This document shows positions 4,525-19,247 of a stretch of DNA of 64,000 nucleotides, piece after piece. Position numbers and translations under genes: made by a program. How positions within the stretch are numbered: position 1 is the stretch's first letter; every line of letters starts with the position of its first letter. The DNA is from Candidatus Poribacteria bacterium (GTDB taxonomy: Bacteria > Poribacteria > WGA-4E > PCPOR2b): contig OZ244042.1 in the NCBI GenBank assembly GCA_965215015.1, positions 5,664,001-5,728,000 on the forward strand, in the 5' to 3' direction. The notes below the pieces were generated by a model. It saw only the letters and a program-made list of their open reading frames with translations. It was not told where the DNA came from and searched no databases.

Positions 4525-4768
4525 ACAGAACCGTGAATCCATGATGTTGTAGCGTTGCTCCAACGCAACACAAAATCGGGACTTTGAGCGTTCAACTGCG
4601 TAAGTCCTATAAGGTAAAAACCTCAGCACTTTTCGGTTGTTGTCTTTAAATGTCGTTTTATGTTCATCCCTTCGACTTCCATCACCACAAGCATATCAAC
4701 AGGCGATTGTTATCTGGGTTGACATCCAGATTAACACGACTGGAAAATTCGATACCGGGACCAGCGCA

Positions 4769-4927
4769 CTCTCCGGAGGGGTTGACGAATACAAGCGGAT
4801 TTTAATCATTGACGCGCTTGAAAGCACTGGAGACTAGAAGGCTGCGGCGGACCCCCTTGGTGTTCCTGAACCAATGTTGAGATATAAAATGGATAAATAC
4901 AGTATCAAAAGAAGCCAATCCATGTAA
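4769..4927 (+). pseudogene. Remnant C-terminal Fis-type HTH of a sigma54 enhancer-binding protein (NtrC family)
   Basis: Reads LSGGVDEYKRILIIDALESTGD*KAAADPLGVPEPMLRYKMDKYSI, matching the E..LI..AL..T.GN...AA..LG.....L.YKM.KY.I pattern with an in-frame stop. Confidence 0.7.
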
Positions 4928-4929
4928 GT

Positions 4930-5069
4930 TCGCAGAAAGCTGCGATATCGGGGGATTGACGTCGCAGAAAGCTGCGAACCTGCTGGAACGCAGTGGCCAC
5001 AAGGCTTCCGGCGATTATGTGTTGCCTTTAAGCCGATTTTGAGGCAAATCTGAACGCAGAAAGCTGCGA
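4930..5069. promoter_or_regulatory. Three palindromic sites TCGCAG-AAAG-CTGCGA (putative enhancer/UAS)
   Basis: Copies at 4930-4945, 4962-4977 and 5054-5069 (third starts ACGCAG). The first two are 32 bp apart. Confidence 0.7.
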
Positions 5070-5361
5070 AGTGCCAGGACGGGAAAAGTCAGAAATGAGA
5101 GAAATGGGGTTAGATTCCGCTTAAAATTAAGAATAAATGAGGAGTTATGCCCTTCCGTTTGTAGGCGGACAATTTATTGATCGATTCATCGGGCGGCGTG
5201 AGTTGTGTTATGCGGTAAGGATTTATAGCATTCATGTTTCCAACATGGATGTTAAGGGGTTCAAAGAACCCCTCAAATCCCAGATGAATCGCTGAACTCT
5301 GAGCTTTTGAGTATTTAACGAGGTAAGTTCTAGCCTGAAGAGTCGATTTCATTTACAATGT

Positions 5362-5377
5362 TGGCATGGGTCTTGCT
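5362..5377 (+). promoter_or_regulatory. Sigma54 (-24/-12) promoter
   Basis: TGGCAT-GGGTC-TTGCT, GG-N10-GC. Confidence 0.8.
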
Positions 5378-5723
5378 TTAAATCAAAATAGGGTAAAGCC
5401 AAGTTATCAACACTGTGAACACTTGGTGAAAAAGAGAACCACATACTCACTTCCAATCAAAATAATATAGGACTTGTGTACTTCAGGTTGTAGTTGCCCA
5501 ATTCATCGAGCGTTACAGAACGTGTTGTCTAGTTATGAACCACCGAACTACAATACTTTGAGCGTTCAACTGGGATTTGTCGGATTATTAGGGGAGGACC
5601 ATCAAGCCCCTAACAATCTTCCTTCAAAGCCTAACAGGCGGTTATAAACCTGAAGGTTAGAAATCATTTGCGTAAGTCCTATTTCTGTTTTTAGAAAAAC
5701 AATGGCTACAAGGAGAGAAAAAA

Positions 5724-6101
5724 ATGAAGCCGAGAATTTTGATAATCCTCTTATGTCTTGTGGCAACGTTATTTGTTGCGGGACTGTTACTGGCAGTGAC
5801 TCAAACAGATGGCCCTATTATTGGGACTGGAAGTATTTCAAGGTCGAGCGGGCAAGTGAGGGCACATGCATCAGCGAATGCTTCAAACGCAGCTCAAATG
5901 GGTTGGTTTTGGATACATGCACAAGTCCTTCCTTATAATTCGCAGTATCAGGATGTAGATTCTGGACCCATCTCAGGTTACCTATATCAGCGTGTTTACG
6001 TAAGTCGAGCAGGGCAGCCTGAGAGTAACGGGCGAGCATATTGTTCAATGTGGGCATCGTCTAGCGCAGGATACCATAGTGTCCTTATAGACTTGCCCTA
6101 A
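5724..6101 (+). CDS. Small secreted hypothetical protein (125 aa)
   Basis: RBS aggag; signal-peptide-like MKPRILIILLCLVATLFVAGLLLA; Ser/Ala/Gly/aromatic-rich mature part. Confidence 0.8.
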   Translation: MKPRILIILLCLVATLFVAGLLLAVTQTDGPIIGTGSISRSSGQVRAHASANASNAAQMGWFWIHAQVLPYNSQYQDVDSGPISGYLYQRVYVSRAGQPESNGRAYCSMWASSSAGYHSVLIDLP

Positions 6102-6265
6102 CCCTCTTCTATACAAGATTAGGCTTCTCAACGTGGGGCGAGGCAGGGGCAGCCGCGTTCCCCTGCTCCCCGCAAGCGAAGGAAATGCTACTTTTTCCAA
6201 TTAAGACTTTCAACCTGCTGGTCACAAACCAGAAGGTTAGAAATCATTTGTAAGGGAGTTCTGTC

Positions 6266-7039
6266 ATGAGAAATCTATGGGATTTAGCGAGACAACCGAT
6301 TGTTATTGGAACGTTTGTATTGGCTTTGCTTATCGTCGTTGGCTCCTACATTGGAGGTCATTGGTACTACGGGGATATTGAACCTATCGACACACCAGAG
6401 TACTCACCGACCTTCACGCCACAGCCATCTGAAGCGGAGCCGGTTCCTCAAATCAACTTAGAGGGGTTAACAGTTTTACCAGTTGAATCCGACCCGCCAC
6501 CCATTGAATTAGATACAACAGTAACGTCCCCGGGAGCGGAATCGGTCGAGGATTTCTTAGCCGGTTTGTCGCCCGAGGAGATACAACTTTTGACTGAGGA
6601 GGTAGCGGAGGCACTCCCGCCCCCCGAATCTATACATGGCCTAGGTCCCTATCCAGAGATACCCCCGGATTATCCATATCAAAATATATGGGAGACCCTT
6701 GAAAGATACTATGACGATGGTCATGCGACAATAGAGCATGAGCTAATCCACCGGGTCCTCATTAAGCTATGGAATCAGGGGAAGAAGACAGAAAGTGCAG
6801 TCCTGTGTAGTAAGAATGGGCGGGTCTATCCACTTTACAGGGATACGGTCTATTTTACGCACGTAGAATATAAAAATGCGGATGGAACTAGTGAGGGGTC
6901 TAAAGGTCACTATCGTAGTCATTATTGCCTTGCCTCTTACGAGGAGGCGGTTATGGAAGGCACTCAACCGAGTTGGTTAAAGGTTATCTCGATTGAAGAT
7001 GGGGGGCTTGAGCCCTACTCATTTCTCGGTTTGGATTGA
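6266..7039 (+). CDS. Membrane-anchored hypothetical protein (N-terminal TM, Pro/Glu linker, GLGPYPEIPPDYP domain)
   Basis: 257-aa ORF with RBS gggag and one N-terminal hydrophobic helix. Confidence 0.82.
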   Translation: MRNLWDLARQPIVIGTFVLALLIVVGSYIGGHWYYGDIEPIDTPEYSPTFTPQPSEAEPVPQINLEGLTVLPVESDPPPIELDTTVTSPGAESVEDFLAGLSPEEIQLLTEEVAEALPPPESIHGLGPYPEIPPDYPYQNIWETLERYYDDGHATIEHELIHRVLIKLWNQGKKTESAVLCSKNGRVYPLYRDTVYFTHVEYKNADGTSEGSKGHYRSHYCLASYEEAVMEGTQPSWLKVISIEDGGLEPYSFLGLD

Positions 7040-7235
7040 AAAGCAGGGGACACTTGAACGATCCATGCTGGTGGGAACTGATGGACTGTTAGGAGTCTCC
7101 TAACAGTCGGTCTAGTTTGCTCTTCGTTTGGTGAATAGTTTCCCTATACGCTCTGCTATCCTTTGGCGGGGCGGTGGGAACTGGCTATGAGTTGGTGATT
7201 CTGTTAGGGCTGCTGGCTTGTTAGGAAGATTGTTA

Positions 7236-7398
7236 ATGGCTTGGCTAACATCTAACTTCCATCAAACTCCCAACCCGAATGGGAAAAACAAAATACCCCC
7301 AACCTCGTAGGTGGGGCATCTTGCCCCATCTACCGTCTGAGCCCCTTATCTGTATCCGTGCCATCCGCTTCATCCGTTGAACCCATGATTCAGACAAT
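7236..7398 (+). repeat. 163-bp direct repeat, copy 2
   Basis: Matches 4362-4524. The 3' part is also seen degenerate at ~39420-39464. Confidence 0.92.
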
Positions 7399-7461
7399 TA
7401 TTATAGGGGGTGAGGTTACGGCATACGGAGTATGCCTACTACTAACAACTTGGGTTATATT

Positions 7462-8454
7462 ATGCTTTCCAATCTTGCCACTGCTATTCAGCTATCCATC
7501 CGCCAGAACTACAACCTCACGATCGAATCTGCAACACCCGTCGGCACCGGCGCAATGAGCACAACAATGCGGCTTGCGACCAACGGAGGAGCATTGTTCC
7601 TGAAAATCTATAAGTCGGCGCGAGATCAGAGAACTCCTGCCCAACCTGACCTTCAGCGAATCGCTTTTACGCACACGGTCCAGAACTTTTTGCATCAGAA
7701 CGGTTTTTCTGTCCCTCGATTGCTACTGAATAGCAGAGGCGAAACCTTCAGTGTGTGCGACAGTCCTGTAGAAGCGAGGGAGGTGTATGCGTTGTCTGAA
7801 TTTATTGAAGGATCTGACTACAATCTTGCGAATTTGGATCAGCTGCGTGCGTCGGGTGAAATGCTTGGATGTTTACACCAGCAACTCCGTCAATTTCAAC
7901 CCCAAATTCGACTTGCCGGGCTGCCCTTAGAAACTGAGATCTTTATACAACTGAAAGAGCGTTTATCCCGCCTCCAACCCGTTGTGAAGACAGATCCGGT
8001 GTCATCGATCCCAATTGGTTCATGGATTCATGAGGTCAAGGTTCTGAGAAGCTCGATCGGTGACGATACCCAATACGAACAGGACTGGCTCATACACGGC
8101 GATTACCGCGCCCAAAATCTCAAGTTCGATGGCAGTGGTATTCGCGCAATCCTCGATTTGGATACCGCTTGTCCTGCGTCCCGTCTGTATGATTTGGGAT
8201 ATGCCCTGATGTTTTTCCCCGCCGTTTATCAAGATATCCCTCTAACGATGAATCAGCAATCCATATTTCTGGGGGCTTACGAAAGCATCTGCCCACTATC
8301 TGAAGCCGAAAGGGAGATGCTTCCCGTCCACCTGCGAATCGCCTTTCTGCGCGGGATGACGCTCTGGTTGGATTTGTACTATTTTGCCGGAATGAGCGAG
8401 CGGACACACCCATGGATTCAAGGTTATCTGCAACATACACAATCTCTGTTTTAA
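7462..8454 (+). CDS. Aminoglycoside phosphotransferase / type II homoserine kinase-like protein
   Basis: LFLKIY, IHGDYRAQNL, ILDLD, LYDLG. The ATG at 7432 lies inside a repeat, so 7462 is preferred. Confidence 0.85.
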   Translation: MLSNLATAIQLSIRQNYNLTIESATPVGTGAMSTTMRLATNGGALFLKIYKSARDQRTPAQPDLQRIAFTHTVQNFLHQNGFSVPRLLLNSRGETFSVCDSPVEAREVYALSEFIEGSDYNLANLDQLRASGEMLGCLHQQLRQFQPQIRLAGLPLETEIFIQLKERLSRLQPVVKTDPVSSIPIGSWIHEVKVLRSSIGDDTQYEQDWLIHGDYRAQNLKFDGSGIRAILDLDTACPASRLYDLGYALMFFPAVYQDIPLTMNQQSIFLGAYESICPLSEAEREMLPVHLRIAFLRGMTLWLDLYYFAGMSERTHPWIQGYLQHTQSLF

Positions 8455-8617
8455 CCCCAACTTCATTGAATTCAGAAGCAGATCGAGAGAATTTCTGGGC
8501 GTCAACAGAGAATTTTATTTACATCCGCCCTGCTTTTGGTCTATAATAACCCCCGTGTGAGGTCGAGAGGCAATCCTTGACCGAAACAACATTTCATTCT
8601 TTAGGAGGAATACAATA

Positions 8618-8995
8618 ATGGCATACACTTTTCATCACGTTCATCTACGCTGTGAAGATGTTGAAGCCGCCGTTGCTTACTACGAAAAGATGCTTGATGG
8701 CAAAGTTACGGAGCGGGTAGAGGTACGCGGCTTGCCAATTGTTCGGATGGATATCGGTGGAGAGAAAATTTTCCTCTCGCCGAAATTTGGCGATATGGAA
8801 GTGGAACCGACCAGTGGAAATCCACGCTGGGGGGTTTATCAACTGGCGTTTGGGGTAGAAGACCTTGATGCTGCCCTTGCAGAGATGGAAGCAAAAGGGG
8901 CTGAAATTGAAGACGCTAAACCGTCTGGCTTGCCAATCGCTTTCGTCAAGGGACCGGATAACGTACAAATTGAACTCATTGAGGGGAGTGTCTAG
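8618..8995 (+). CDS. VOC/glyoxalase family protein
   Basis: FHHVHLRCEDVEAAVAYY, LAFGVEDLD, FVKGPDNVQIEL. Confidence 0.9.
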   Translation: MAYTFHHVHLRCEDVEAAVAYYEKMLDGKVTERVEVRGLPIVRMDIGGEKIFLSPKFGDMEVEPTSGNPRWGVYQLAFGVEDLDAALAEMEAKGAEIEDAKPSGLPIAFVKGPDNVQIELIEGSV

Positions 8996-9178
8996 CTTTT
9001 GCGGGTTGATGAACCGTAGGGGCGTCATCACGCAGAAGGCAAACTTTTTCACATGAAAGATTCCAAAAGGAGAAAAGTTTGCCTTCCCCCACCCCCTACT
9101 TGAGATATACCGATGAGTAAATTGCCTTGAGAGACCTGATGGGAAACAGCAAATTTCTTGAAAGAAGGAGAGTCGCAA

Positions 9179-9787
9179 ATGAGATTGGAGTTGTACATCG
9201 CCGGCGTTTCTCAAGCGAGTCTCTTGGATTGGAGGGCGCAACTCTCGGAATACGCACAAGCAGCAGGGTTGGAAGTAGCACACTTCCCAATCCATGAGAC
9301 ACCGGAAGCTCTTCGAGAAAAGCTGCCTGTCGTTTTGGATGAACTCTGTTCAATCCCTGAGCAGCGGATTGAATTTCATGCAGCAGATGTAGATCAGTTG
9401 TGCACCTTTGCTTATACAAATTACCGGTGCCGTATGGATAGAGACTGGAATGCCTCCCTCTATTTCCCTTCAAAGGGTGCAATTTTCCTTCCATTCGATG
9501 AAACCACCCTTTCCAGACGGGTTGCCCACCTCTACTATCAGGAGGGGACATCGGACAAGGTTTATCACCTTTATCTTGCCCAATCGTTGACAGACGATTT
9601 CTACTCTGTCATCAGCCGCTACGGTCGTCGTGACGGAGGGCTTCAACAAACGGAGAAGGGGTTTGATTCCCACCTTCAGGCAGCTGAGAAAGAGTGGAAC
9701 CGACTGCATCACGACAAGCTCCAGAAGGGATATCAGATCGGATACCCGACCCCGCCCCAACAACTCACATTGGCTTTGTCTTTCTGA
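9179..9787 (+). CDS. Hypothetical protein with C-terminal WGR domain
   Basis: LYYQEGTSDKVY...SRYGRR...KLQKGY. RBS aggag. Confidence 0.78.
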   Translation: MRLELYIAGVSQASLLDWRAQLSEYAQAAGLEVAHFPIHETPEALREKLPVVLDELCSIPEQRIEFHAADVDQLCTFAYTNYRCRMDRDWNASLYFPSKGAIFLPFDETTLSRRVAHLYYQEGTSDKVYHLYLAQSLTDDFYSVISRYGRRDGGLQQTEKGFDSHLQAAEKEWNRLHHDKLQKGYQIGYPTPPQQLTLALSF

Positions 9788-9789
9788 CT

Positions 9790-11466
9790 ATGAAATACAG
9801 CGAATTTTTCCATACAATTCAGGGCGAAGGCAAATTGATTGGCGTGCCCTCCGTTTTCTTTCGGACCAGTTACTGCAATCTGAGATGTGTGTGGTGTTCC
9901 GCGGTAGGAACGCGCGTTTTACGTTCAGATCTCAGATGGATGCCCATTGAAAACCTCAGTCCCGGCGATTGGGTGGTGGGTGCATTGCGCCAAGACAAAG
10001 GAGGACACCTGCAATTACAGCCAACTGAGGTTGTCGAAACCTTGGTCCGCCGAACCCCCACGGTTCGTTTCTTAACGGAAGATGGAATACAGCTCGCCTG
10101 TTCAGCAGATCACCTATTATATCAAGTAGCAACTCGAACTCAGGATAGTTCTAAAATTCACGTTGGCTGGAGAAAGGCGAGAAACCTCAGTGCAGGTGAA
10201 GCAGTTCGTTGTATACTCCCACCCGAAGAGCCACAATTGGACGTGGAGGCGTATGAAAGAGGTTGGCTATGTGGAGTGGTAGAGGGGACCGGCTGCTTTT
10301 GGAGTGTACAAAAAGGGAATAAAAGTTACCGCCGATTTCGACTCACTTTATCGAACCTTTCACTATTGGAACAATTCCATCTATTTGCCAAACGTGCGGG
10401 TTACCGTCTACATTTTGCCCCACATCAGTATTGTGGATTCAAAGGATATAGTGTGATGGAGGCGTTATACCTGACAGAATCCCAAAGTGCCGAATCCTTT
10501 GAGCGATGGTTGACAGCACACCCACAAGACCCAAGTTACTATCGTGGCTGGTTAGGAGGCTTTTTTGATGCGGGAGGTAGTTATACTGGTACAATTCACC
10601 TTGATCAGAAGGAGGGAATAGTTAAACAAAAGGCGATCGACTTTGCAACGAAACTAGGATTTCAGCCAACTAGCGAATCCCGTGGAATTAGATTGGGTGG
10701 AACGACCCCTGAGGTTCTAAGGTTTTATTCACTATGTCAACCCCAATCTCCCAACAAGTGGAATTTTTGGGGCATTTCTAGTCAGGCGCGTCAACATATT
10801 GTTGATGTAGAACACACTGCCGCCGAAGAGGTGATTTCCCTCAAGACCGCATCCGGCACTTATGTTAGCGAGGGGATACTTTCCCACAACTGCGATACCC
10901 CTTTCACCTCTTGGAATCCAGAGAATAAGGACATCACCCTCACGGAAGCGGTCGAAACTATCACAAAATACGATTGTAAGCATGTTGTCATCACAGGGGG
11001 TGAACCGTTTATCCAAGTCAAGGAATTGACCGAGCTCTGCCGAGAGCTTGATCAACGTGGTCATCACATTACGATCGAGACGAATGGGACCATTTTTGCA
11101 CCTGTGGCGGCACATCTCATCTCTATGAGTCCCAAGCTACGAAACTCCAATCCGCCCAGTGCCAATCGCTTTTTTCAAAGACATGAGCGCGGACGCATCT
11201 GCCCCGATGTCATCCGGCAATTCCTGGATCGGTACGAGTGTCAGGTCAAGTTTGTTGTTGACCAACCTGCAGATCTTGAAGAGGTTCAGACGCTACAGAC
11301 AGAAATTTCCATCCCCGCAGAAACAATTGTGCTGATGCCCCAAGGCATAACCCCCGAAGAATTGGCACCTAAACAGGAGTGGCTTGTGGACATCTGTAAG
11401 GAGCACGGATATCGCTATTCACCGCGGGTTCACGTTGATATTTGGGGAGATAAACGGGGGGTGTAA
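9790..11466 (+). CDS. queE: 7-carboxy-7-deazaguanine synthase (radical SAM), intein-containing
   Basis: EFFHTIQGEG...G.PSVFFR..CNLRCVW/CDTP, VITGGEP, IETNGT, SPKL, SPRVH. Spliced extein is 226 aa. Confidence 0.9.
   Translation: MKYSEFFHTIQGEGKLIGVPSVFFRTSYCNLRCVWCSAVGTRVLRSDLRWMPIENLSPGDWVVGALRQDKGGHLQLQPTEVVETLVRRTPTVRFLTEDGIQLACSADHLLYQVATRTQDSSKIHVGWRKARNLSAGEAVRCILPPEEPQLDVEAYERGWLCGVVEGTGCFWSVQKGNKSYRRFRLTLSNLSLLEQFHLFAKRAGYRLHFAPHQYCGFKGYSVMEALYLTESQSAESFERWLTAHPQDPSYYRGWLGGFFDAGGSYTGTIHLDQKEGIVKQKAIDFATKLGFQPTSESRGIRLGGTTPEVLRFYSLCQPQSPNKWNFWGISSQARQHIVDVEHTAAEEVISLKTASGTYVSEGILSHNCDTPFTSWNPENKDITLTEAVETITKYDCKHVVITGGEPFIQVKELTELCRELDQRGHHITIETNGTIFAPVAAHLISMSPKLRNSNPPSANRFFQRHERGRICPDVIRQFLDRYECQVKFVVDQPADLEEVQTLQTEISIPAETIVLMPQGITPEELAPKQEWLVDICKEHGYRYSPRVHVDIWGDKRGV
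9895..10890 (+). mobile_element. Intein (332 aa) with degenerate LAGLIDADG endonuclease
   Basis: Starts CSAVGTRV, block B CSADH, ends GILSHN followed by Cys. Motifs WLCGVVEGTG and WLGGFFDAGG. Confidence 0.92.
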
Positions 11467-11540
11467 TACTAGTCTACCGCCGATTTCAGAAACATGGCGA
11501 TGAAGCGAAAATACAAGAAGAATAATGGGGAACAATCTCA

Positions 11541-12656
11541 ATGAAATACGACATACTGCTCAAAGGTGGGACCGTTATTGACCCCGCACAGAAATTACAT
11601 GACCGGCGAGATATCGCAATTGCCGATGGAAAGATTGCGGCAATTGAGGATGATATTTCTGCAAGAGAGGCAACGCAAACCGTCTTCGTTGATGGAAAGT
11701 ATGTGACCCCTGGCTTAGTGGACATCCACGCTCATGTCTACGCAGGTGTTACGACATGGGGGGTTAAAGCGGATCCGGTCTGCACAACGACCGGTGTCAC
11801 AACAATCGTTGATGCCGGTAGCCCAAGTTGGGCGACATTCCCCGGCTTTCGGGAGTATATTGCACAGCCGGCGCAAACGCACATATTAACCTATATCCAT
11901 ATCTCTGGCATCGGTCTCGTCTATGGGCCCGTTGGCGAGATGCACGAGCTTGAATACGCCCATCCAGAGAAGGTCGCTGACACACTCATGCAGAATCGTG
12001 ACATCACCGTCGGCGTTAAAGTGCGTCAGGGCAAATCCCAAGTCGGTGATAATGGCGTTGAACCGTTGAAGTTGGCGATCAAAGCCGCTCAAATTGCCGA
12101 CACTTCTGTCATGGTGCATATCGGGACCGGTGTGCCGCTTCCCGATGTTCTAAAACTGATGCGCCCCGGCGATGTCGTCACTCACTGCTTTCAAGGAAAC
12201 GGTGACTGTATCGTTGATGATAACGGACGGGTTATCCCGGATGCGTGGGCAGCTCGCGAAGATGGAGTTATCTTCGATGTCGGTCATGGCGGCGGGAGTT
12301 TTAATTACGAGGTTGCCCAACGTGCAATGGAGCAGGGATTCATCTCTGACGTCATCAGTACAGACCTGCACTCCGGCAATATCAACGGTCCTGTCTACGA
12401 CCTCCCGACAACGTTATCAAAATTCTTAAATCTTGGGCTTTCGCTTGAGGAGGTCATTGAAAAATCGACGATTGCTGCGGCAAGGGCAGTTGGGCGTGAG
12501 GACGAACTCGGTCATCTCAAAATCGGGACGATTGCCGATATCGCTGCTTTTGATGTCATTGAAGGTGAATTTGAGCTTTTCGATACACACGGTACGATGG
12601 TTATCGCCAACCGGAAGCTGCAAACAGACTTAACGATCCGTGAGGGAAAGTTGTGA
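11541..12656 (+). CDS. Amidohydrolase/dihydroorotase-like metallohydrolase
   Basis: PGLVDIHAH, VDAGS, MVHI, VTHCF, DVGHG, ISTDLH. Confidence 0.9.
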   Translation: MKYDILLKGGTVIDPAQKLHDRRDIAIADGKIAAIEDDISAREATQTVFVDGKYVTPGLVDIHAHVYAGVTTWGVKADPVCTTTGVTTIVDAGSPSWATFPGFREYIAQPAQTHILTYIHISGIGLVYGPVGEMHELEYAHPEKVADTLMQNRDITVGVKVRQGKSQVGDNGVEPLKLAIKAAQIADTSVMVHIGTGVPLPDVLKLMRPGDVVTHCFQGNGDCIVDDNGRVIPDAWAAREDGVIFDVGHGGGSFNYEVAQRAMEQGFISDVISTDLHSGNINGPVYDLPTTLSKFLNLGLSLEEVIEKSTIAAARAVGREDELGHLKIGTIADIAAFDVIEGEFELFDTHGTMVIANRKLQTDLTIREGKL

Positions 12657-13072
12657 CAATGGTGCAGAGGAAAGGTTGTTATCGGCGCGTTGTGACGACC
12701 GGGCTAACTGTTGTAATCATCATTGCCGGGGTCGGGGTTTTACTTTATCAAAGGTTGGGCGGCCCGGAAGGGGCGCGATATTGGATCGCGGAACGGGCCT
12801 TAAACGCTGTCGAAGCGCACCTATTGACGAAAGCCCCGGATGGCAACTGGCTACGGAAACCGGATGGTGTCTCCGCCAAGGAAATCCGCTCTCAGTTTGA
12901 GCGCGTCCGAAAAGCGACCGTAGACCGTCAGACGGATTTGATACGACTGAATCAGATTCTTAGAGACTACCTATCCAAGTTTCAGCACACACAGCCAGCG
13001 ACAAGCGAAGTCATTGAATTTCTGAACGCTATTGAAGGGACAATTATATCCAAAGCAAGCGTGGGGGGCTAA
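12653..13072 (+). CDS. Hypothetical membrane-anchored protein
   Basis: Overlaps the upstream stop (GTGA); N-terminal TM helix. Confidence 0.7.
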   Translation: MTMVQRKGCYRRVVTTGLTVVIIIAGVGVLLYQRLGGPEGARYWIAERALNAVEAHLLTKAPDGNWLRKPDGVSAKEIRSQFERVRKATVDRQTDLIRLNQILRDYLSKFQHTQPATSEVIEFLNAIEGTIISKASVGG

Positions 13073-13114
13073 CCGGGGATAAAAACTCTGATGGATTATG
13101 TTTCGTAATCAACA

Positions 13115-14407
13115 TCAGGCTGCAGCACGAATATTCGCACGTGTGCCATCTACATCAAAGCAAGCAAACTGATTGTCTCGCATTAGGCGTGTAGCAATCT
13201 GCATCGCCTGTTTTTCGTTCATATATCCCTCCACAATCTCTCCTTCAAGGGTGCGGCGAATCTCGTTACGCGCTTGAATCGCGTAAGCCATTGAACTAGT
13301 GGGCCAACCCGTGTCTCCGCCAAAGGCAAATATCTTATTCAATGGAACCGCGTGGATGAACCGACGTAGGAAGTCCCGGGAGCTATACGGATCTATACTC
13401 CATGCCCAACAAAGATCGACCCAGATATTACGATAGTGCTTCGCTAGGGCGACCAGCTCATCGTTATAGGGATAGGCGATGTGCATCAGGACAAACTTGG
13501 CATCCAGGTAGCGGGCAAAGAGCGCACACATATTCCCAGCGGGGATTCGACGCACCGGCATTCGGTCATTTCCCGCGTAGTAGCCTGTGTGAATTTTGAA
13601 TGGAAGGTTATGTTTGATCGACAATTCGACCCCACGCGCCCAACACCAATCGCCTAAGCAGAGGTAGGTTTCAACGCTCAGCTCCGCTGCGGGTTGGGTT
13701 AGCACCCGGTTGAGTGCAGCTGACGCCTCGACATCGTTCCGTTCGATCCAGTTGAGGGTTCGGTTATAGGCGTGCTGCGCCTTCACCGCAATAGCGCATG
13801 GCGCATACTTCTCGAAAATTGCCTCCATCCCCTCTTTCAGCGTCCGGAGATCCTTCACCTCAATACCTGTCTCAGCGTGGATCTGTTCCGTGTTGATTTG
13901 TCCATTGCAAAAACCAGCCCACGAGAGGTCGTAGAGAAAGAAGTCCAGCCCGGAGTGATCGGGTAAGCAGGGCCAACTGAAATCGTCAGTCTGCACATGG
14001 TCTAGATTCGCTACGTCGTGCAGTAGGCGATAACGTTCACCGGGCTTGCGCAGCACTTTAATTTTTTCACTCGCCATTTCTAAGGCTTCTCCAGTGAGTT
14101 CGTCTATTCCGTAGACGTGCTCTGCAATGAGGCGCACCGCCTCGCCGTATCCAGTGAATTGCGTCGCTTCCCACGCCTCCTGAATTCCCTTGAAACGTCC
14201 GACAATATCCGGGTCTGAAGCGTCCATCAAGCGTTGCATTGCATCCGGCGATGCCCCTGCTGTGTTAAGGTCTGCGGGAACATAATTCCCAAATAGGTCC
14301 TGTAAGATGTCAGGACCGTTTTCCAACCAATCCGGTTCTTTTCGCAGATGTTCATGCGTGTCAACCAGAGGGGTCGCTTGGATGTGGTGTACAAGATCTG
14401 TCGGCAT
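13115..14407 (-). CDS. Amidohydrolase family (Amidohydro_2-like) protein
   Basis: DTHEH, KIHTG, LMHIAYP, FGGD. Confidence 0.88.
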   Translation of the reverse strand: MPTDLVHHIQATPLVDTHEHLRKEPDWLENGPDILQDLFGNYVPADLNTAGASPDAMQRLMDASDPDIVGRFKGIQEAWEATQFTGYGEAVRLIAEHVYGIDELTGEALEMASEKIKVLRKPGERYRLLHDVANLDHVQTDDFSWPCLPDHSGLDFFLYDLSWAGFCNGQINTEQIHAETGIEVKDLRTLKEGMEAIFEKYAPCAIAVKAQHAYNRTLNWIERNDVEASAALNRVLTQPAAELSVETYLCLGDWCWARGVELSIKHNLPFKIHTGYYAGNDRMPVRRIPAGNMCALFARYLDAKFVLMHIAYPYNDELVALAKHYRNIWVDLCWAWSIDPYSSRDFLRRFIHAVPLNKIFAFGGDTGWPTSSMAYAIQARNEIRRTLEGEIVEGYMNEKQAMQIATRLMRDNQFACFDVDGTRANIRAAA

Positions 14408-14582
14408 ATTTCTAGTCCTTTCTGACTTTGAATCGTGATATAATCATCGCGGAATTTGGTATTAATTGTTAGTTTAACGTAGGTTGCTAATAGTAAGTAT
14501 ACTCCGTATGCCGTAACCTCTTCGGTTAGTTTAACAGAGCTTCGGTTTTTACTCAAGAGATTTATAAAAGGAGGTGTGAGTT

Positions 14583-15401
14583 ATGGATTATGAAACAACG
14601 CAGACACAGGCTGCTACAATGGAGATTGGACTGCTTATCGGCAGCCTAGACCGACTGGAGGATGTCGCAGCGTGGGGCTATGACTACGCCGAAATCTCTC
14701 CCAGTCTCCTAGGAATTGACGAAGAAGCTGGGACTATCCAACAAAAAGTTCTCGAACGAATTGAGGCATCGCCGGTGCCTGTTGCGGCAATGTGCGGCTT
14801 TTTGGCTCGGTCAAAAGTGGTTGGCCCGGCGGTTGATAACACACAAGTGCGCGATTATGTCATACGCCTGTTCGACGCGATGCAGCAGACTGGGGTCTCA
14901 GTGATCGGCTACGGCAGCGGCGGATCTCGTTTCGTCCCTGACGGATTTTCTCGGGACCGGGCATGGGCACAGGTGAATGACTTCCTCCAGATGTGCGCTG
15001 ACTTGGGTGAACCACGCGGGGTACAGGTCGCCCTTGAGCCGTATAATTACGACGACGCGAACCTAATCAATACGGTTCCAGAGGGGGTTGAGATGGTTCG
15101 GAAAGTCAACCGCCCCGGTATCCAGTTGATGGCGGATTTCTTTCACATGCGGCTGAACAGTGAGTCATTCGATACGCTCGCAACCGCAGGCCCCCACCTG
15201 ATTCACGCACATATTGCCGAGCCGGGACGGGGGCACCCGCAAACAACCTCAGTGGAGCACGCAGCATATCTCCAAGCATTGTATGAGGTTGGGTACTATG
15301 GGCGCGTGACACAGACCGGTGAACTACCCGCTTACGATTCACCCGAGGAAGCTGCTGCAACACTCAAACGGTTCGCTTGTCAAGGAGGGGAGAAGAAATG
15401 A
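14583..15401 (+). CDS. Sugar-phosphate isomerase/epimerase (TIM barrel)
   Basis: ALEPYN, MADFFHM, HAHIAE. Confidence 0.88.
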   Translation: MDYETTQTQAATMEIGLLIGSLDRLEDVAAWGYDYAEISPSLLGIDEEAGTIQQKVLERIEASPVPVAAMCGFLARSKVVGPAVDNTQVRDYVIRLFDAMQQTGVSVIGYGSGGSRFVPDGFSRDRAWAQVNDFLQMCADLGEPRGVQVALEPYNYDDANLINTVPEGVEMVRKVNRPGIQLMADFFHMRLNSESFDTLATAGPHLIHAHIAEPGRGHPQTTSVEHAAYLQALYEVGYYGRVTQTGELPAYDSPEEAAATLKRFACQGGEKK

Positions 15402-16096
15402 CAGTACCGACTTTCCACTACAACCGCATCGTTGACCTTTCACGTCCATTGGTTCCGAGTGAGGGGCAGCATCCGTGGGTTCGGTTTGAGACACGGATTG
15501 ATAGCATCGTCAGCGATCCCGAAACCGCCCCAGCGTCAGGTCGTTGGTATGTGGTGACACAGATTGGGATGAGCGGTCATGCGGGCACCCATGTTGAAGC
15601 TCCCTTGCATGCAGTCCAGAACGGGGCCGCGGTTGGCGAGCTGCCGGTCGAGCAATTCTTTGGTGAGGCGGCTATCCTAGACCTCAGTGATGTACCTTGG
15701 TCAATGCCTATTGGGCGTCCACGCCTCGAGGAAGCGGCATCGCAAGCCGGGGGTATCCGGGCGGGTGATATTGTTTTTATCTATTTTGGTTGGGATCGTC
15801 GTACTGAAACTGAAAGCGGGGGACCGCCCTATCCCACGCCTGATGCACTCCAATGGTTAGTCAATTCGGGGATAAAATTAATCGGCATCGACAGCCCTGG
15901 ACTGGAGGTGCCGGGCAATCGCGAACTGATTAACCACCACATTTTGTTTGACCGGGGAATCCCGTTAATCGAGAGTCTCGCTCATTTAGAAGATCTCCGC
16001 GAAAGTCGTGTGTACGTTTTCGCGCAACCGCTGCCCGTCCTTGAAACGGACGCTATACCGCTGCGTGTACTGGCATTCGAGAGGACATCCGAATAA
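15398..16096 (+). CDS. Cyclase family (kynurenine formamidase-like) metal hydrolase
   Basis: HAGTHVEAPLH, IGIDSP, LIESL. Confidence 0.9.
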   Translation: MTVPTFHYNRIVDLSRPLVPSEGQHPWVRFETRIDSIVSDPETAPASGRWYVVTQIGMSGHAGTHVEAPLHAVQNGAAVGELPVEQFFGEAAILDLSDVPWSMPIGRPRLEEAASQAGGIRAGDIVFIYFGWDRRTETESGGPPYPTPDALQWLVNSGIKLIGIDSPGLEVPGNRELINHHILFDRGIPLIESLAHLEDLRESRVYVFAQPLPVLETDAIPLRVLAFERTSE

Positions 16097-16198
16097 TAGC
16101 CAGGCTCATAATAAAAAGAAAGTGCAAGGCGCAAAGAGCCCCCGCGTTTTTTTCGGCAAAGCTCGGGGTCTGTTGCACAATTTCGTAACATGAGCCAA

Positions 16199-16263
16199 AC
16201 AATTTTGCCCGGAAGGGGGCTCGTGACGAGCCAAAGACTTGTCACAAGCATAAACATCCGCAT
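16199..16263 (-). pseudogene. Truncated third copy of the PD40 gene (signal peptide only)
   Basis: MRMFMLVTSLWLVTSPLPGKIV plus the same upstream intergenic sequence; homology is then lost. Confidence 0.8.
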
Positions 16264-16291
16264 AGTAACACCTCAGTTAGGGGGCCCGTCC

Positions 16292-17278
16292 TCACGGGCG
16301 CGATACGGCGGATTTAATCCCCCCCCAGAACCGGGGGAACACCCCCTGGTGAGGGGGGACAGACAGGCGTGGATCCCATTCGTGGGGACCGAGATCGTCT
16401 TGGGGATGATTCGTCAACTGAGTCAGCTGCCCGTCCACAAGCCGAAAACGGTAAATCTCCCAGTTATTGCCCTCCGTTCTAAAGGTAACCCCCCGATTTC
16501 TCCCAGCAAACAGAATGGACTTCCCATCAACAGACCAAACTTCACTGGTCATATTCCAACGCGGCAAGCGCAACAACTCACGCTTGACTACCTGCTGCCT
16601 CCCCGCCGGATGGAGTGTAGCTATCACCGTAGACGACTGGTTTGCATCAAACCCAACCGTTTCTACATACACAACCCGCCTCCCATCCGGCGACCACCCG
16701 CCCAAAAGCATACCTGTATTCGGCTTCGGTTGAGACACCCGCCACAACCCCCTGCCATTCGGACGAATCGCATAAATCTGCCGCCCTTGGTCAATAACAC
16801 CCTCAAAGAGAATCTGTTTCCCATCCGGCGACCATTGTGGGCTCGTAGCAAACTCCAGGCGTGTAACCTGTTTCACATTGCTCCCATCGGCATCCATCAC
16901 GAAGATATTGAGATCCGGATCTTTACCACTGTTCTGAGTGCTATCAAAAGCAATCTGATTTCCGTCCGGCGACCAGTTGGGATAACCATCAGATGCAGGA
17001 TGCCGGGTCAGGTTCCGTTGATGGCTCCCATCGGCATCCATCACATATATCTCCAAATTTCCGTCGCGTTTACTATGGAACGCAATCTGACTTCCGTCCG
17101 GGGACCAGACGGGAGCGGAATCACTCACCTCATTGAACGTCAGGCGTGTTTGGTTGCTCCCATCGGAGTTCATGGTGTAGATTTCAGTATTGCCATCCCG
17201 ATTAGAATAGAATACAATTTTGCCCTGAAGGGGGCCCGTGACGAGCCAGAGACTCGCCACAAGCAAAATAATACGCAT
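16292..17278 (-). CDS. TolB-like PD40 beta-propeller protein, copy A
   Basis: Repeated WSPDG.QIAF motifs; signal peptide; tail [17 protein letters not shown]. Confidence 0.9.
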
Positions 17279-17306
17279 AACGACACCTCAGTTAGGGGGC
17301 CCGTCC

Positions 17307-18293
17307 TCACGGGCGCGATACGGCGGATTTAATCCCCCCCCAGAACCGGGGGAATACCCCCTGGTGAGGGGGGACAGACAGGCGTGGATCCCATTCGTGG
17401 GGACCGAGATCGTCTTGGGGATGATTCGTCAACTGAGTGAGATGCCCGTCCACAAGCCGAAAACGGTAAATCTCCCAGTTATTGCCCTCCGTTCTAAAGG
17501 TGACCCCCCGATTTCTCCCAGCAAACAGAATGGACTTCCCATCAACAGACCAAACTTCACTGGTCATATTCCAACGCGGCAAGCGCAACAACTCACGCTT
17601 GACTACCTGCTGCCTCCCCGCCGGATGGAGTGTAGCTATCACCGTAGACGACTGGTTTGCATCAAACCCAACCGTTTCTACATACACAACCCGTCTCCCG
17701 TCCGGCGACCACCCGCCCAAAAACATGCCGGTATTCGGCTTCGGTTGAGACACCCGCCACAACCCCCTGCCATTCGGACGAATCGCATAAATCTGCCGCC
17801 CTTGGTCAATAACACCCTCAAAGAGAATCTGTTTCCCATCCGGCGACCATTGGGGGTTCGTCGCAAACTCCAGGCGTGTAACCTGTTTCACATTGCTCCC
17901 ATCGGCATCCATCACAAAGATGTTGAGATCCGGATCTTTACCGCTGTTCTGAGTGCTACGAAACGCAATCTGATTTCCGTCCGGCGACCAGGAGGGAACC
18001 CCATCAAATGCAGGATGCCGGGTCAGGTTTCGTTGATGGCTCCCATCGGCATCCATCACATACACCTCCTGATTCCCGTCCCGTTTACTATTGAACGCAA
18101 TCTGACTTCCGTCCGGCGACCAGACGGGAGCAGAATCACTGGCCTCATTGAATGTCAGGCGTGTTTGGTTGGTTCCATCGGAGTTCATGGTGTAGATTTC
18201 AGTGTTTCCGTCCCGATGAGAATAGAATACAATTTTGCCCGGAAGGGGGCTCGTGACGAGCCAGAGACTCGCCACAAGCAAAATAATACGCAT
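17307..18293 (-). CDS. TolB-like PD40 beta-propeller protein, copy B
   Basis: 328 aa, about 15 substitutions versus copy A; 1015-bp tandem unit. Confidence 0.9.
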   Translation of the reverse strand: MRIILLVASLWLVTSPLPGKIVFYSHRDGNTEIYTMNSDGTNQTRLTFNEASDSAPVWSPDGSQIAFNSKRDGNQEVYVMDADGSHQRNLTRHPAFDGVPSWSPDGNQIAFRSTQNSGKDPDLNIFVMDADGSNVKQVTRLEFATNPQWSPDGKQILFEGVIDQGRQIYAIRPNGRGLWRVSQPKPNTGMFLGGWSPDGRRVVYVETVGFDANQSSTVIATLHPAGRQQVVKRELLRLPRWNMTSEVWSVDGKSILFAGRNRGVTFRTEGNNWEIYRFRLVDGHLTQLTNHPQDDLGPHEWDPRLSVPPHQGVFPRFWGGIKSAVSRP

Positions 18294-18304
18294 AACGACA
18301 CCTC

Positions 18305-18808
18305 CTATTCAACATCAATCATCTGAAACTCAGTGACTTTGAGCTCTGCTTCGCCCGGCACTCTGACAAGTTTACCACCTTTACGGATTTCAATCCGTGT
18401 ATACGCCTCGATTTCATAATCGCGGTCTGGGTTCAAACCCCCAACACTTGTACCGAGTCCTCGACTATCGCTGTCCCATTCGTACTGCCCTCTTATTATG
18501 GGTCCATCTTCGAGAACCTTAACCTCTCTTACAATTATCCCCAGAATAAGATCGTGGACAAAATGGGCAAACTCATATGTCACCTTGACGCCGGCGGGCA
18601 TATCACTGTAGAGCTCAATCTGGTAACTGTGAGAGCTGTATGTCTCATTATACTGATGGCTTAGACTACCAACATAGATGTCCCACATGATATCATCGGT
18701 GAAACCCGAGTCTGAACTGGAAGAAACCGTTTGAGTGAGAATCAATATACCAATCAGAAAAACAATCAGCAAAAACGCGATATTTCGGATAATCCTTGTG
18801 CGTAACAT
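18305..18808 (-). CDS. Small secreted acidic hypothetical protein (167 aa)
   Basis: RBS ggagg before ATG 18808; hydrophobic N-terminus; ends 11 bp upstream of the PD40 gene. Confidence 0.8.
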   Translation of the reverse strand: MLRTRIIRNIAFLLIVFLIGILILTQTVSSSSDSGFTDDIMWDIYVGSLSHQYNETYSSHSYQIELYSDMPAGVKVTYEFAHFVHDLILGIIVREVKVLEDGPIIRGQYEWDSDSRGLGTSVGGLNPDRDYEIEAYTRIEIRKGGKLVRVPGEAELKVTEFQMIDVE

Positions 18809-18927
18809 GATTAAACCCTCCATCTGTGTGGTTAGGAATGTTTTGACATTCCGTTAGGCGAAAGTTAATTCACATATCCGATTCGCTTTTTCACTAAGTA
18901 TTCACAGTGTTGACAACTTAAAGTTAT

Positions 18928-18943
18928 AGCAAAGCTCATGCCA
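18928..18943 (-). promoter_or_regulatory. Sigma54 (-24/-12) promoter
   Basis: Minus strand TGGCAT-GAGCT-TTGCT. Confidence 0.8.
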
Positions 18944-19190: not shown

Positions 19191-19247
19191 TTGACAGAAT
19201 GTCAGGCGAATACGCCGAAAATCATCAAATATTGACAAAATGTCAAT
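19191..19247. promoter_or_regulatory. Two palindromic sites TTGACA-N3-TGTCA(A/G) (putative enhancer/UAS)
   Basis: ttgacagaatgtcag at 19191 and attgacaaaatgtcaat at 19231, about 250-300 bp upstream of the sigma54 promoter. Confidence 0.55.

Follow-up and report, generated by a model that had tools for sequence, protein, structure and literature searches.

We analysed a window of 64,000 nt from the 5.94-Mb single-contig genome of a Candidatus Poribacteria bacterium, which we will call G000. Two operons in this window, locus A and locus B, begin with related leaders: a 40-nt element at 5401–5440 on the forward strand is identical at 35 of 40 positions to one at 18919–18880 on the reverse strand. 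Each copy follows a sigma-54-type promoter. At locus A, the leader is followed by open reading frames (ORFs) of 125 amino acids (A1) and 257 amino acids (A2). At locus B, it is followed by a 167-amino-acid protein (B1), two PD40 proteins of 328 amino acids each (B2 and B3), and a 93-amino-acid remnant of another PD40 protein (Table 1). The first proteins of the two operons are unrelated: comparing A1 with the family of B1 gave an hhalign probability of 0.4%, which is no detectable relation. The two loci also have different palindromes upstream, with three copies of TTCGCAG-N4-CTGCGAA at locus A and two of TTGACA-N3-TGTCAA at locus B. The shared 40-mers, the promoters, the differing palindromes, and the gene layout had been described by a model that saw the letters but searched no databases (the sequence-only reading), and we reproduced them. 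We propose, with moderate confidence, that the shared element is part of a genus-specific cassette of sigma-54 promoter and leader that has spread across a multigene family of exported-protein operons, and that the leader acts at the level of RNA.

Both promoters have the form TGGCAT-N5-TTGCT, with the GG of the −24 element and the GC of the −12 element at the canonical spacing (TGGCAC-N5-TTGCW). The pattern TGGCAY-N5-TTGCW matches just twice in the 64 kb, directly upstream of the two 40-mers; shuffled sequences had 0.22 matches on average, and 2 of 100 shuffles reached two. A degenerate 34-nt core of the element also has exactly two matches in the window (5401–5434 on the forward strand and 18886–18919 on the reverse strand), with 0 expected from 100 shuffles. 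We infer that the operons depend on sigma-54 in vivo. The genome has two rpoN-like genes, corresponding to its two matches to Sigma54_DBD (G000:C1:2521280-2521753 and 872123-872527, in frames of 568 and 457 amino acids).

Table 1. Positions of the features of loci A and B within the window.
Feature	Position	Strand	Basis or detail
Remnant of the C-terminal Fis-type helix-turn-helix (HTH) of a sigma-54 activator, with in-frame stop	4790..4925	+	sequence reading
Three palindromes TTCGCAG-N4-CTGCGAA, predicted activator sites of locus A	4929-4945, 4962-4979, 5055-5070	.	
Sigma-54-type promoter of locus A, TGGCATGGGTCTTGCT	5362..5377	+	consensus match
H1 module of locus A, GCCAAGU-N16-ACUUGGU hairpin and A-rich tail; includes the 40-mer 5401-5440	5391..5440	+	covariance model, 79.5 bits
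Insertion-like long hairpin of dispersed-repeat copies, with ends ATAGGACTT... and ...GCGTAAGTCCTAT	5465..5690	+	
A1, 125 amino acids, N-terminal hydrophobic signal-like segment, no known family	5724..6101	+	ORF, Pfam/NCBIfam
A2, 257 amino acids, membrane-anchored: transmembrane helix, disordered linker, conserved alpha/beta C-terminal domain	6266..7039	+	AlphaFold2 (AF2) model
Terminator-like 11-bp hairpin behind A2	7084..7108	+	
Truncated third PD40 copy, 93-amino-acid ORF	15982..16263	-	weak PD40 profile match (96-amino-acid stop-to-stop frame), E 8e-7
B3, second 328-amino-acid PD40 propeller, 95% identical to B2	16292..17278	-	
B2, 328-amino-acid PD40 beta-propeller, signal-like N-terminus	17307..18293	-	PF07676, E 4e-34
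B1, 167 amino acids, exported beta-sandwich protein of the SB family	18305..18808	-	homology, AF2 model
Hairpin H5, GGAAUGU-CAAA-ACAUUCC, just 5' of the ribosome-binding site	18835..18852	-	
H1 module of locus B, UUAAGU-N16-ACUUAG; includes the 40-mer	18880..18929	-	covariance model, 47.6 bits
Sigma-54-type promoter of locus B, TGGCATGAGCTTTGCT	18928..18943	-	consensus match
Two palindromes TTGACA-N3-TGTCAA (TTGACAGAATGTCA, TGACAAAATGTCAA), predicted activator sites of locus B	19191-19204, 19233-19246	.	41 bp apart

Copies of the cassette in the genome and the genus

A search of the genome with a 28-nt core of the element (at most 6 substitutions) found six copies. Besides the window's own A and B, these are C, D, and F, which cluster in 11 kb at about 0.91 Mb, and E at 4.95 Mb. 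The sequence-only reading had spoken of two cassettes, so its count needs to be raised to six in this genome and to a family across the genus. All six copies lie directly 3' of ATGTTGGCAT-RGGTY-TTGCT, and just 6 of the 61 genome-wide matches to TGGCAY-N5-TTGCN bear the leader. The six paralogous 40-mers are identical at 30–39 of 40 positions, while the proteins encoded downstream share only 21–33% amino-acid identity. The leaders of B, C, D, and E are homologous as far as the ribosome-binding site and the start codon. Each cassette comprises a sigma-54 promoter close to the consensus, a surrounding block of about 100 bp with conservation from about −40 to +60, and a leader that is predicted to be transcribed.

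The element does not behave like a dispersed repeat or a miniature inverted-repeat transposable element (MITE): it has six copies only, each directly 3' of a sigma-54 promoter. Nor did searches across other genomes find it as a generic dispersed repeat that is unlinked to such promoters.

To the extent that we could find it, the cassette is confined to one genus. Using BLAST with the 176-nt promoter and leader of locus C as the query, we found matches in 16 of the 19 other genomes of the genus, none in 9 genomes from the family's other genera, and a single weak match (E = 0.005) among 32 genomes from the other three families. A covariance model of the first hairpin of the leader (H1, described below), built on a 50-nt module, matched 33 times when run on 151 genomes from the order. 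The matches fall in 16 genomes, all from the same genus (G000 and 15 of its 19 relatives), and there were no matches in 131 genomes from 16 other genera. All 33 matches sit downstream of a sigma-54-type promoter. Although 29 of them are the sequences that the model was trained on, the other four have the promoter as well (in one of these, the −12 element reads TTGA). Furthermore, a 26-nt pattern that is blind to the promoter had 26 matches, in 14 of the 20 genomes of the genus, and every one of them is a locus that carries the promoter; the reversed pattern, as a control, had no matches. These results uphold the suggestion of a modular family with a cis element that is tied to sigma-54 promoters. 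A scan of five loci (15,140 bases) against Rfam 15 gave no matches at E ≤ 1.

For a census of the cassettes, we listed 40 promoter instances from 17 genomes and typed the downstream reading frames with profiles from our own alignments. One promoter proved to be unrelated, and at four more the leader has diverged or matches only in part. The other 35 leaders bear H1; 31 of these are aligned and four are variants with a long loop.

The H1 hairpin and the rest of the leader

H1 consists of G-CCAAGU, a conserved loop of 16 nt, and ACUUGG-U, and it leads into an A-rich tract. Its stem, CCAAGU/ACUUGG, is paired in 95.2% of 186 cells in an alignment of 31 homologues, and none of 500 shuffles matched its pairing or its covariation score. 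One pair changes from C-G to U-A in three sequences, including locus B. The sequence-only reading had proposed a different fold, CACU-GU-GAAY-AC-UU-RGUG. This can be drawn, but it is just 88.0% paired in the 31 homologues, which 252 of 500 shuffles equalled, and the GUG at its 3' end varies freely. H1 fits better, and it explains the substitution at the R position in locus B, because a C-to-U change on the opposite arm of H1 restores the pairing. In four leaders, the stem of H1 is retained around a different and longer insert that lengthens the helix, with the arms 29–30 nt apart.

The distance from the promoter to H1 ranges from 6 to 25 nt, a variation that speaks against H1 being a fixed contact of the polymerase on the DNA. 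The usual spacing is 15 nt from TTGCN to the stem. Since transcription from sigma-54 promoters starts some 12 nt past the −12 GC, the first arm of H1 is predicted to lie about 5 nt from the transcript's 5' end.

The complete leader is about 145 nt long and has four more predicted helices besides H1, up to an unpaired ribosome-binding site. In 16 sequences, the 33 pairs of the five helices are 94.2% paired. Five pairs show compensatory change, a number that 13 of 500 shuffles reached. The covariation score exceeds that of all 500 shuffles, for sequences that are closely related (about 35 sequences have a mean column identity of 88%, and this is too small a set). Consensus folding with RNAalifold again finds H1 and H5, together with a long-range stem, GAACC/GGUUC; two inner hairpins that we added are counted among the 33 pairs. 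Across the full leaders, the cells that are not Watson-Crick pairs include 61 G.U and 12 A.C, as expected if the sense transcript folds. The leader of locus C folds as drawn, with a z score of −5.9.

At locus A, H1 alone is kept. About 220 nt of dispersed repeat replaces the 3' part of the leader, before A1, and the junction between H1 and the repeat is also found in a second species. When the whole 5' untranslated region (UTR) of locus A is folded, the H1 hairpin is retained and positions 5467–5685 pair as a single long hairpin. The dispersed repeat, which ends in ...CTTTGAGCGTTCAACTGCGTAAGTCCTAT (window positions 4570–4611 and 5465–5690), has at least 176 copies across the genome: its terminal 12-mer occurs 129 times without a mismatch, and its 29-mer matches at 176 sites when up to 5 substitutions are allowed. 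It looks like a repetitive extragenic palindrome (REP) or a MITE, and copies of it flank or interrupt several cassettes.

We also considered other ways in which H1 might be read. A leader peptide can be rejected: a 22-codon frame that starts with GTG spans H1, but it is broken by indels of 1 and 2 nt among the homologues. A search for an antisense partner of the loop found no genomic copies of its 12–14-nt core beyond the six loci, and a looser 12-nt pattern had 7 further matches on either strand, none of which suggests a partner. Among RNA-binding proteins, we did not find CsrA in the genome, and Hfq had one borderline match (26.7 bits). Binding of Hfq to the A-rich tract would be speculation.

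Activator sites and exported proteins

Inverted repeats of the kind expected about 100–450 bp upstream of a sigma-54 promoter are present upstream of the promoters at A, B, and E, and we predict them to be activator sites. The sequence CGCAG-N4-CTGCG occurs 19 times in the genome. Fourteen of these have the form TTCGCAG(A/C) and lie upstream of A, C, D, F, and one more cassette, at 912.9 kb; these cassettes have triplets of TTCGCAG-N4-CTGCGAA in common. The palindrome of locus E is TGTGCGA-N5-TCGCACA. Thus, three classes of putative activator sites (those of A/C/D/F, of B, and of E) appear to feed the same core promoter. The sequence-only reading had called the cassettes separately inducible; because of these three classes, separate induction is plausible and, at the level of sequence, well founded. 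The differing upstream sites would wire the cassettes to different sigma-54 activators, so that they could be switched on separately.

The genome has 23 matches to the sigma-54 interaction domain (Sigma54_activat), none of which is within the window, so locus B has no activator nearby. Locus C lies directly 3' of an intact histidine kinase and a 484-amino-acid regulator of the NtrC type, and locus E lies 3' of a 316-amino-acid activator that lacks a receiver domain. The HTH remnant upstream of locus A resembles both the C-terminus of the 484-amino-acid activator and an 84-amino-acid ORF, another HTH remnant, between D and F. Regions of about 650 nt upstream of A, C, D, and F, including these remnants, are duplicates of each other. 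The decayed activator C-termini at A and between D and F indicate that whole upstream modules were duplicated. Loci A, C, D, and F, which have one class of sites in common, probably answer to the two-component system at locus C; for locus A, this system is 4.75 Mb away. The palindrome of locus B also occurs as a triplet with 41-bp spacing (TTGACAAAATGTCAA) at G000:C1:4067516-4067598, which is flanked by two divergent sigma-54-like promoters (at 4,066,651 on the reverse strand and at 4,067,746 on the forward strand). This locus at 4.0675 Mb may be a regulon partner of locus B.

The cargo behind the 35 leaders with H1 falls into a few types. In 23 cases, the first gene belongs to the family of B1, which we call SB, and is followed by PD40 genes; in three, a PD40 gene comes first; four have A1 and A2; and five are unclassified (two are too short, one encodes a 362-amino-acid protein, and two have copies of a 196-amino-acid protein without a family). 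With three A1/A2 pairs in this genome as well, the layout of a small exported protein and a partner does recur, as the sequence-only reading had supposed. Pfam gave nothing above its cut-off for four unusual cargo proteins (362 amino acids in L010, 196 in L041, 125 in L024, and 224 in L039).

BLASTP shows homology between B1 and the genes that come first at E, C, and F (E values of 2e-10, 1e-6, and 2e-5), and a global profile search found 140 cluster representatives of the SB family at E ≤ 0.001. The family, as represented by B1, has no match in Pfam or NCBIfam, and a search for related loci that was seeded with B1 alone found no match. The AF2 model of B1 (pLDDT 86.5) is an eight-stranded beta-sandwich behind a signal-like helix. 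Foldseek matched it to ApaG and arrestin-like folds with TM scores of 0.3–0.4. VIA-align ranked the rim of MspA first (Z = 8.8, rmsd 3.6 over 117 residues), ahead of many Ig and FnIII domains with Z of 7–8. The models point to a generic Ig-like beta-sandwich, that is, a two-sheet all-beta domain, for which structural matches are non-specific.

The PD40 partners form arrays of 1–7 tandem exported propellers. The longest array that we saw is at locus E (L007:2619-10859, reverse strand), where seven tandem PD40 genes of 316–326 amino acids follow one SB gene. A prediction of the complex of B2 and B1 scored 0.00; it was run with no controls and says nothing about binding either way. In PD40 genes, the stretch that encodes W-S-P-D-G-(T/K)-(R/K)-I-A spells TGGCAC-N5-TTGC, which gives false sigma-54 matches inside propeller genes (seen in relatives, at L071, L073, and L084).

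A1 and A2 have no match in Pfam or NCBIfam either. Of the three A1/A2 pairs in the genome, one has a PD40 gene immediately before it; in relatives, A2 comes first and A1 second behind the same leader; and paralogues and orthologues of A1 adjoin A2-like genes. By gene neighbourhood, A1 and A2 form a conserved pair of their own. We found 95 clusters of homologues of A2; none has a match in Pfam, and their sole names are "hypothetical protein." The AF2 model of A2 (pLDDT 80.3) has a helix at residues 4–35, low confidence at 44–89, and a confident fold at 94–257. Foldseek found nothing for it at E ≤ 0.001, and a Protein Atlas search gave no usable match. Its VIA-align list was filled by matches to the N-terminal transmembrane helix, which means that the C-terminal domain was barely tested. 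A2 contains the string HELIH (about residues 156–163), and we considered that this might be the HExxH motif of a zinc protease. We rejected this idea: the histidines are not conserved in 25 homologues, in which only the glutamate and the following arginine are invariant. In L006:10678-12238 (reverse strand; 910.7–912.2 kb of G000, between C and D), three tandem genes of 168–178 amino acids with lipoprotein-like N-termini have the C-terminal domain of A2 in common, at 27–30% identity. The cassette before them has kept its activator sites, and its −12 element is degenerate. In all, the cassettes define three unannotated families of exported proteins, SB, A1, and A2, which travel with propellers.

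Explanations for the shared leader

Our proposal is that the shared leader gives the mRNAs of all cassettes a common 5' end, and that H1 works as RNA: it may shield the mRNA as a stem-loop at the 5' end, offer a trans-acting factor a shared binding site, or do both. We think that a role at the level of RNA is most likely. In three of four pairs of loci, promoter and leader are also more conserved than the four-fold degenerate sites of the genes (89 vs. 78%, 81 vs. 69%, and 77 vs. 43% identity).

Several observations weigh against this proposal. In the fourth pair, locus B and L038 (which has a B1-like protein with 58% amino-acid identity), the promoter and leader are less conserved than the four-fold sites (60% vs. 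73%). Just one of the six pairs of H1 shows a compensatory change, as the very high conservation makes for thin covariation. The number of H1 pairs that changed on both sides was reached by 201 of 500 shuffles, and related sequences may outscore shuffles without any structure. Taken alone, H1 has 9 G.U and 6 A.C cells, so it cannot by itself separate RNA pairing from an inverted repeat in DNA; four mismatches fall at one pair. Of nine variant leaders, four lack a stable 5' hairpin. In the consensus, the ribosome-binding site is unpaired, and no translational switch is apparent for that reason. A simple stabilizing hairpin does not account for the strongly conserved loop. Locus B itself is a poor example: its H1 is only 6 nt from the promoter, 9 nt closer than usual, so the predicted +1 falls inside the 5' arm; helices 2–4 are deleted; and the leader is no more stable than shuffled sequences (z = −0.39). 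We read locus B as a degraded copy of the leader.

A more specific version of our proposal is that H1 with its invariant 16-nt loop is the operator for a dedicated post-transcriptional regulator, acting in trans, that gates all of the cassettes (PD40, beta-sandwich, and A1/A2) together, no matter which sigma-54 activator has fired. The regulator could be an RNA-binding protein, a small RNA, or a product of the exported families that acts in feedback. We find this version doubtful. If it is true, the cassettes form a regulon with two layers, in which separate transcriptional inputs meet one common checkpoint at the RNA. The regulon would then control the repertoire of "eukaryote-like" surface proteins in a sponge symbiont that is uncultivated.

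Alternatively, the 40-mer might have no function of its own, with promoter and leader having been duplicated recently along with their operons and then homogenized by gene conversion among paralogues. Part of the conservation could indeed be due to such conversion and to recent common descent, given that the element occurs in one genus only. The copies at C and D are nearly the same (39/40 over the 40-mer and 97% over 176 nt), the 650-nt regions upstream of A, C, D, and F were duplicated, the leader of locus B is eroding, and the covariation is thin. We nevertheless consider this explanation unlikely. The 40-mers are still alike where the coding regions have fallen to 21–33% identity, and the block is kept before unrelated cargo and behind three unrelated classes of activator sites. 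It also does not sit well with the three pairs of loci in which the leader is more conserved than four-fold sites, or with an H1 stem that is kept around unrelated loops.

We also considered that the element might act as DNA: a repressor or roadblock protein could bind CCAAGT-N16-ACTTGG, 3' of the promoter, and silence all of the cassettes. Such an operator would suit the conservation of the 16-nt "loop," which exceeds what a plain hairpin needs, as well as the near parity of A.C and G.U in H1, the overlap of the element with the predicted start site at locus B, and the spacing from the promoter, which is the same in most copies. However, in four leaders the arms are 29–30 nt apart with unrelated spacers, which is better for an RNA stem than for a dimeric site. 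Furthermore, the spacing does vary (6–25 nt), the downstream helices are rich in G.U, which is typical of RNA, and no candidate repressor gene is linked to the cassettes. So an operator in the DNA seems improbable to us.

The sequence-only reading had a different emphasis, namely that each cassette encodes a secreted effector (like a bacteriocin, a toxin, or a pilin) with an immunity protein or chaperone as its partner. This seems very unlikely, even though a small exported first gene with a partner is a conserved layout and the families are lineage-specific, fast-evolving, present in multiple copies, and without any assigned function. B1, A1, and A2 have no match to toxin, bacteriocin, pilin, or immunity families in Pfam or NCBIfam (PADLOC was not searched), and the modelled fold of B1 is generic. 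The partners are 1–7 exported propellers or a transmembrane-anchored protein of 257 amino acids, rather than a single cognate immunity gene, and some cassettes begin with PD40 and have no small gene. Finally, the 100-bp block might be the end of a MITE-like element with an outward sigma-54 promoter, since the same block is found before unrelated genes and the dispersed repeat (at least 176 copies) lies beside or inside cassettes, including in the leader of A and upstream of the promoters of A, C, D, and F; but that repeat is a different sequence, the block has just six genomic copies, in one orientation and always upstream of exported-protein operons, and no terminal inverted repeats or target duplications bound it in the alignments, so we give this idea hardly any credence.

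The cassettes offer a testable regulatory logic for a large part of the PD40 or "eukaryote-like" repertoire of one genus of Poribacteria: one conserved type of sigma-54 promoter, at least three predicted activator inputs, and a common leader, predicted to be structured, for which Rfam has no match. A functional leader would be a new cis-regulatory RNA motif that is coupled to sigma-54 promoters. Even with a leader that lacks function, the cassettes would be a clear case of a promoter that has spread through a family of paralogous genes.

In its logic, the cassette family is closest to the PEP-CTERM regulon of Proteobacteria. There, 99 of 167 genes have a sigma-54 motif together with a shared activator motif, and the PrsK/PrsR two-component system is matched to them (Haft et al. 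2006, PMC1569441). In both systems, large sets of paralogous genes for exported proteins lie behind a shared block with −24/−12 elements and an activator motif, and there is an NtrC-type regulator with a kinase. The best match of the locus C activator in NCBIfam is the PrsR model, but at 401.7 bits, below the cut-off of 502.6, it is not a PrsR equivalog. Unlike the PEP-CTERM proteins, none of 25 proteins that we scanned matched PF07589. The poribacterial cassettes also differ in that conservation runs about 60–145 nt into the transcript, with hairpins; in that at least three classes of activator sites are found on one core promoter; and in that, among the Poribacteria searched, the cassette is in one genus only.

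A looser analogue is the "upstream homology box" family of Borrelia (ospE/ospF/erp), which Marconi and colleagues reportedly described in 1996: divergent exported or surface paralogues are said to share a conserved promoter and 5' region, and reportedly they are borne on prophage plasmids. To our knowledge, that family is not dependent on sigma-54, and we know of no structured leader hairpin described for it. As for the hairpin itself, the 5' UTR of E. coli ompA has a 5'-terminal stem-loop that stabilizes the mRNA; the hairpin is a few nt from the 5' end and is followed by a single-stranded tract. H1 is similar to such stabilizers in being near the predicted 5' end and in preceding an A-rich tract (for H1, both the start site and an effect on stability are predictions). 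H1 differs from them in its strongly conserved loop sequence and in being common to a whole regulon.

The proteins behind the cassettes belong to a broader theme in sponge symbionts. Sponge symbiont communities are reported to be enriched in PD40 and TolB-like domains (PMC9531527, PMC5735121), and enrichment of PD40 and other "eukaryote-like" repeat proteins in sponge symbionts has been reported repeatedly (PMC9531527, PMC5735121, PMC3909097); the passages of these three papers on such repeat proteins are silent on their regulation. WD40 repeats are described as abundant in poribacterial single-cell genomes. Similarly, B2 and B3 are PD40 beta-propellers. Unlike TolB, they have PD40 repeats only, with no N-terminal domain of TolB in Pfam (TIGR02800 scores 162.6 bits, below the cut-off of 343.15), and the cassette propellers are in tandem arrays behind sigma-54 promoters instead of in a tol-pal operon. 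Searching the literature on Poribacteria with sigma-54 or with PD40, we found no report of sigma-54 control of these proteins.

We noticed some variants of the cassette. A second conserved type of leader (...CAATACTCGATTTTGGGCAATCCAATTCGAGATTACTTCGCACAGGCGAATC...) follows variants of H1 in the relatives L032, L033, L036, and L043. In G000, this type is found at G000:C1:765191 (reverse strand) behind a different sigma-54-like promoter, without H1. A paralogue of the SB genes at G000:C1:2056259 (forward strand) is directly 3' of a gene that ends in a sequence like region 4 of sigma-70, and no TGGCAY-N5-TTGC consensus for sigma-54 is present within 420 nt upstream of it. In the relative L148, H1 is fused to a fragment that resembles this sigma-70 region-4-like gene end of the 2056259 locus, which suggests recombination between regulatory regions.

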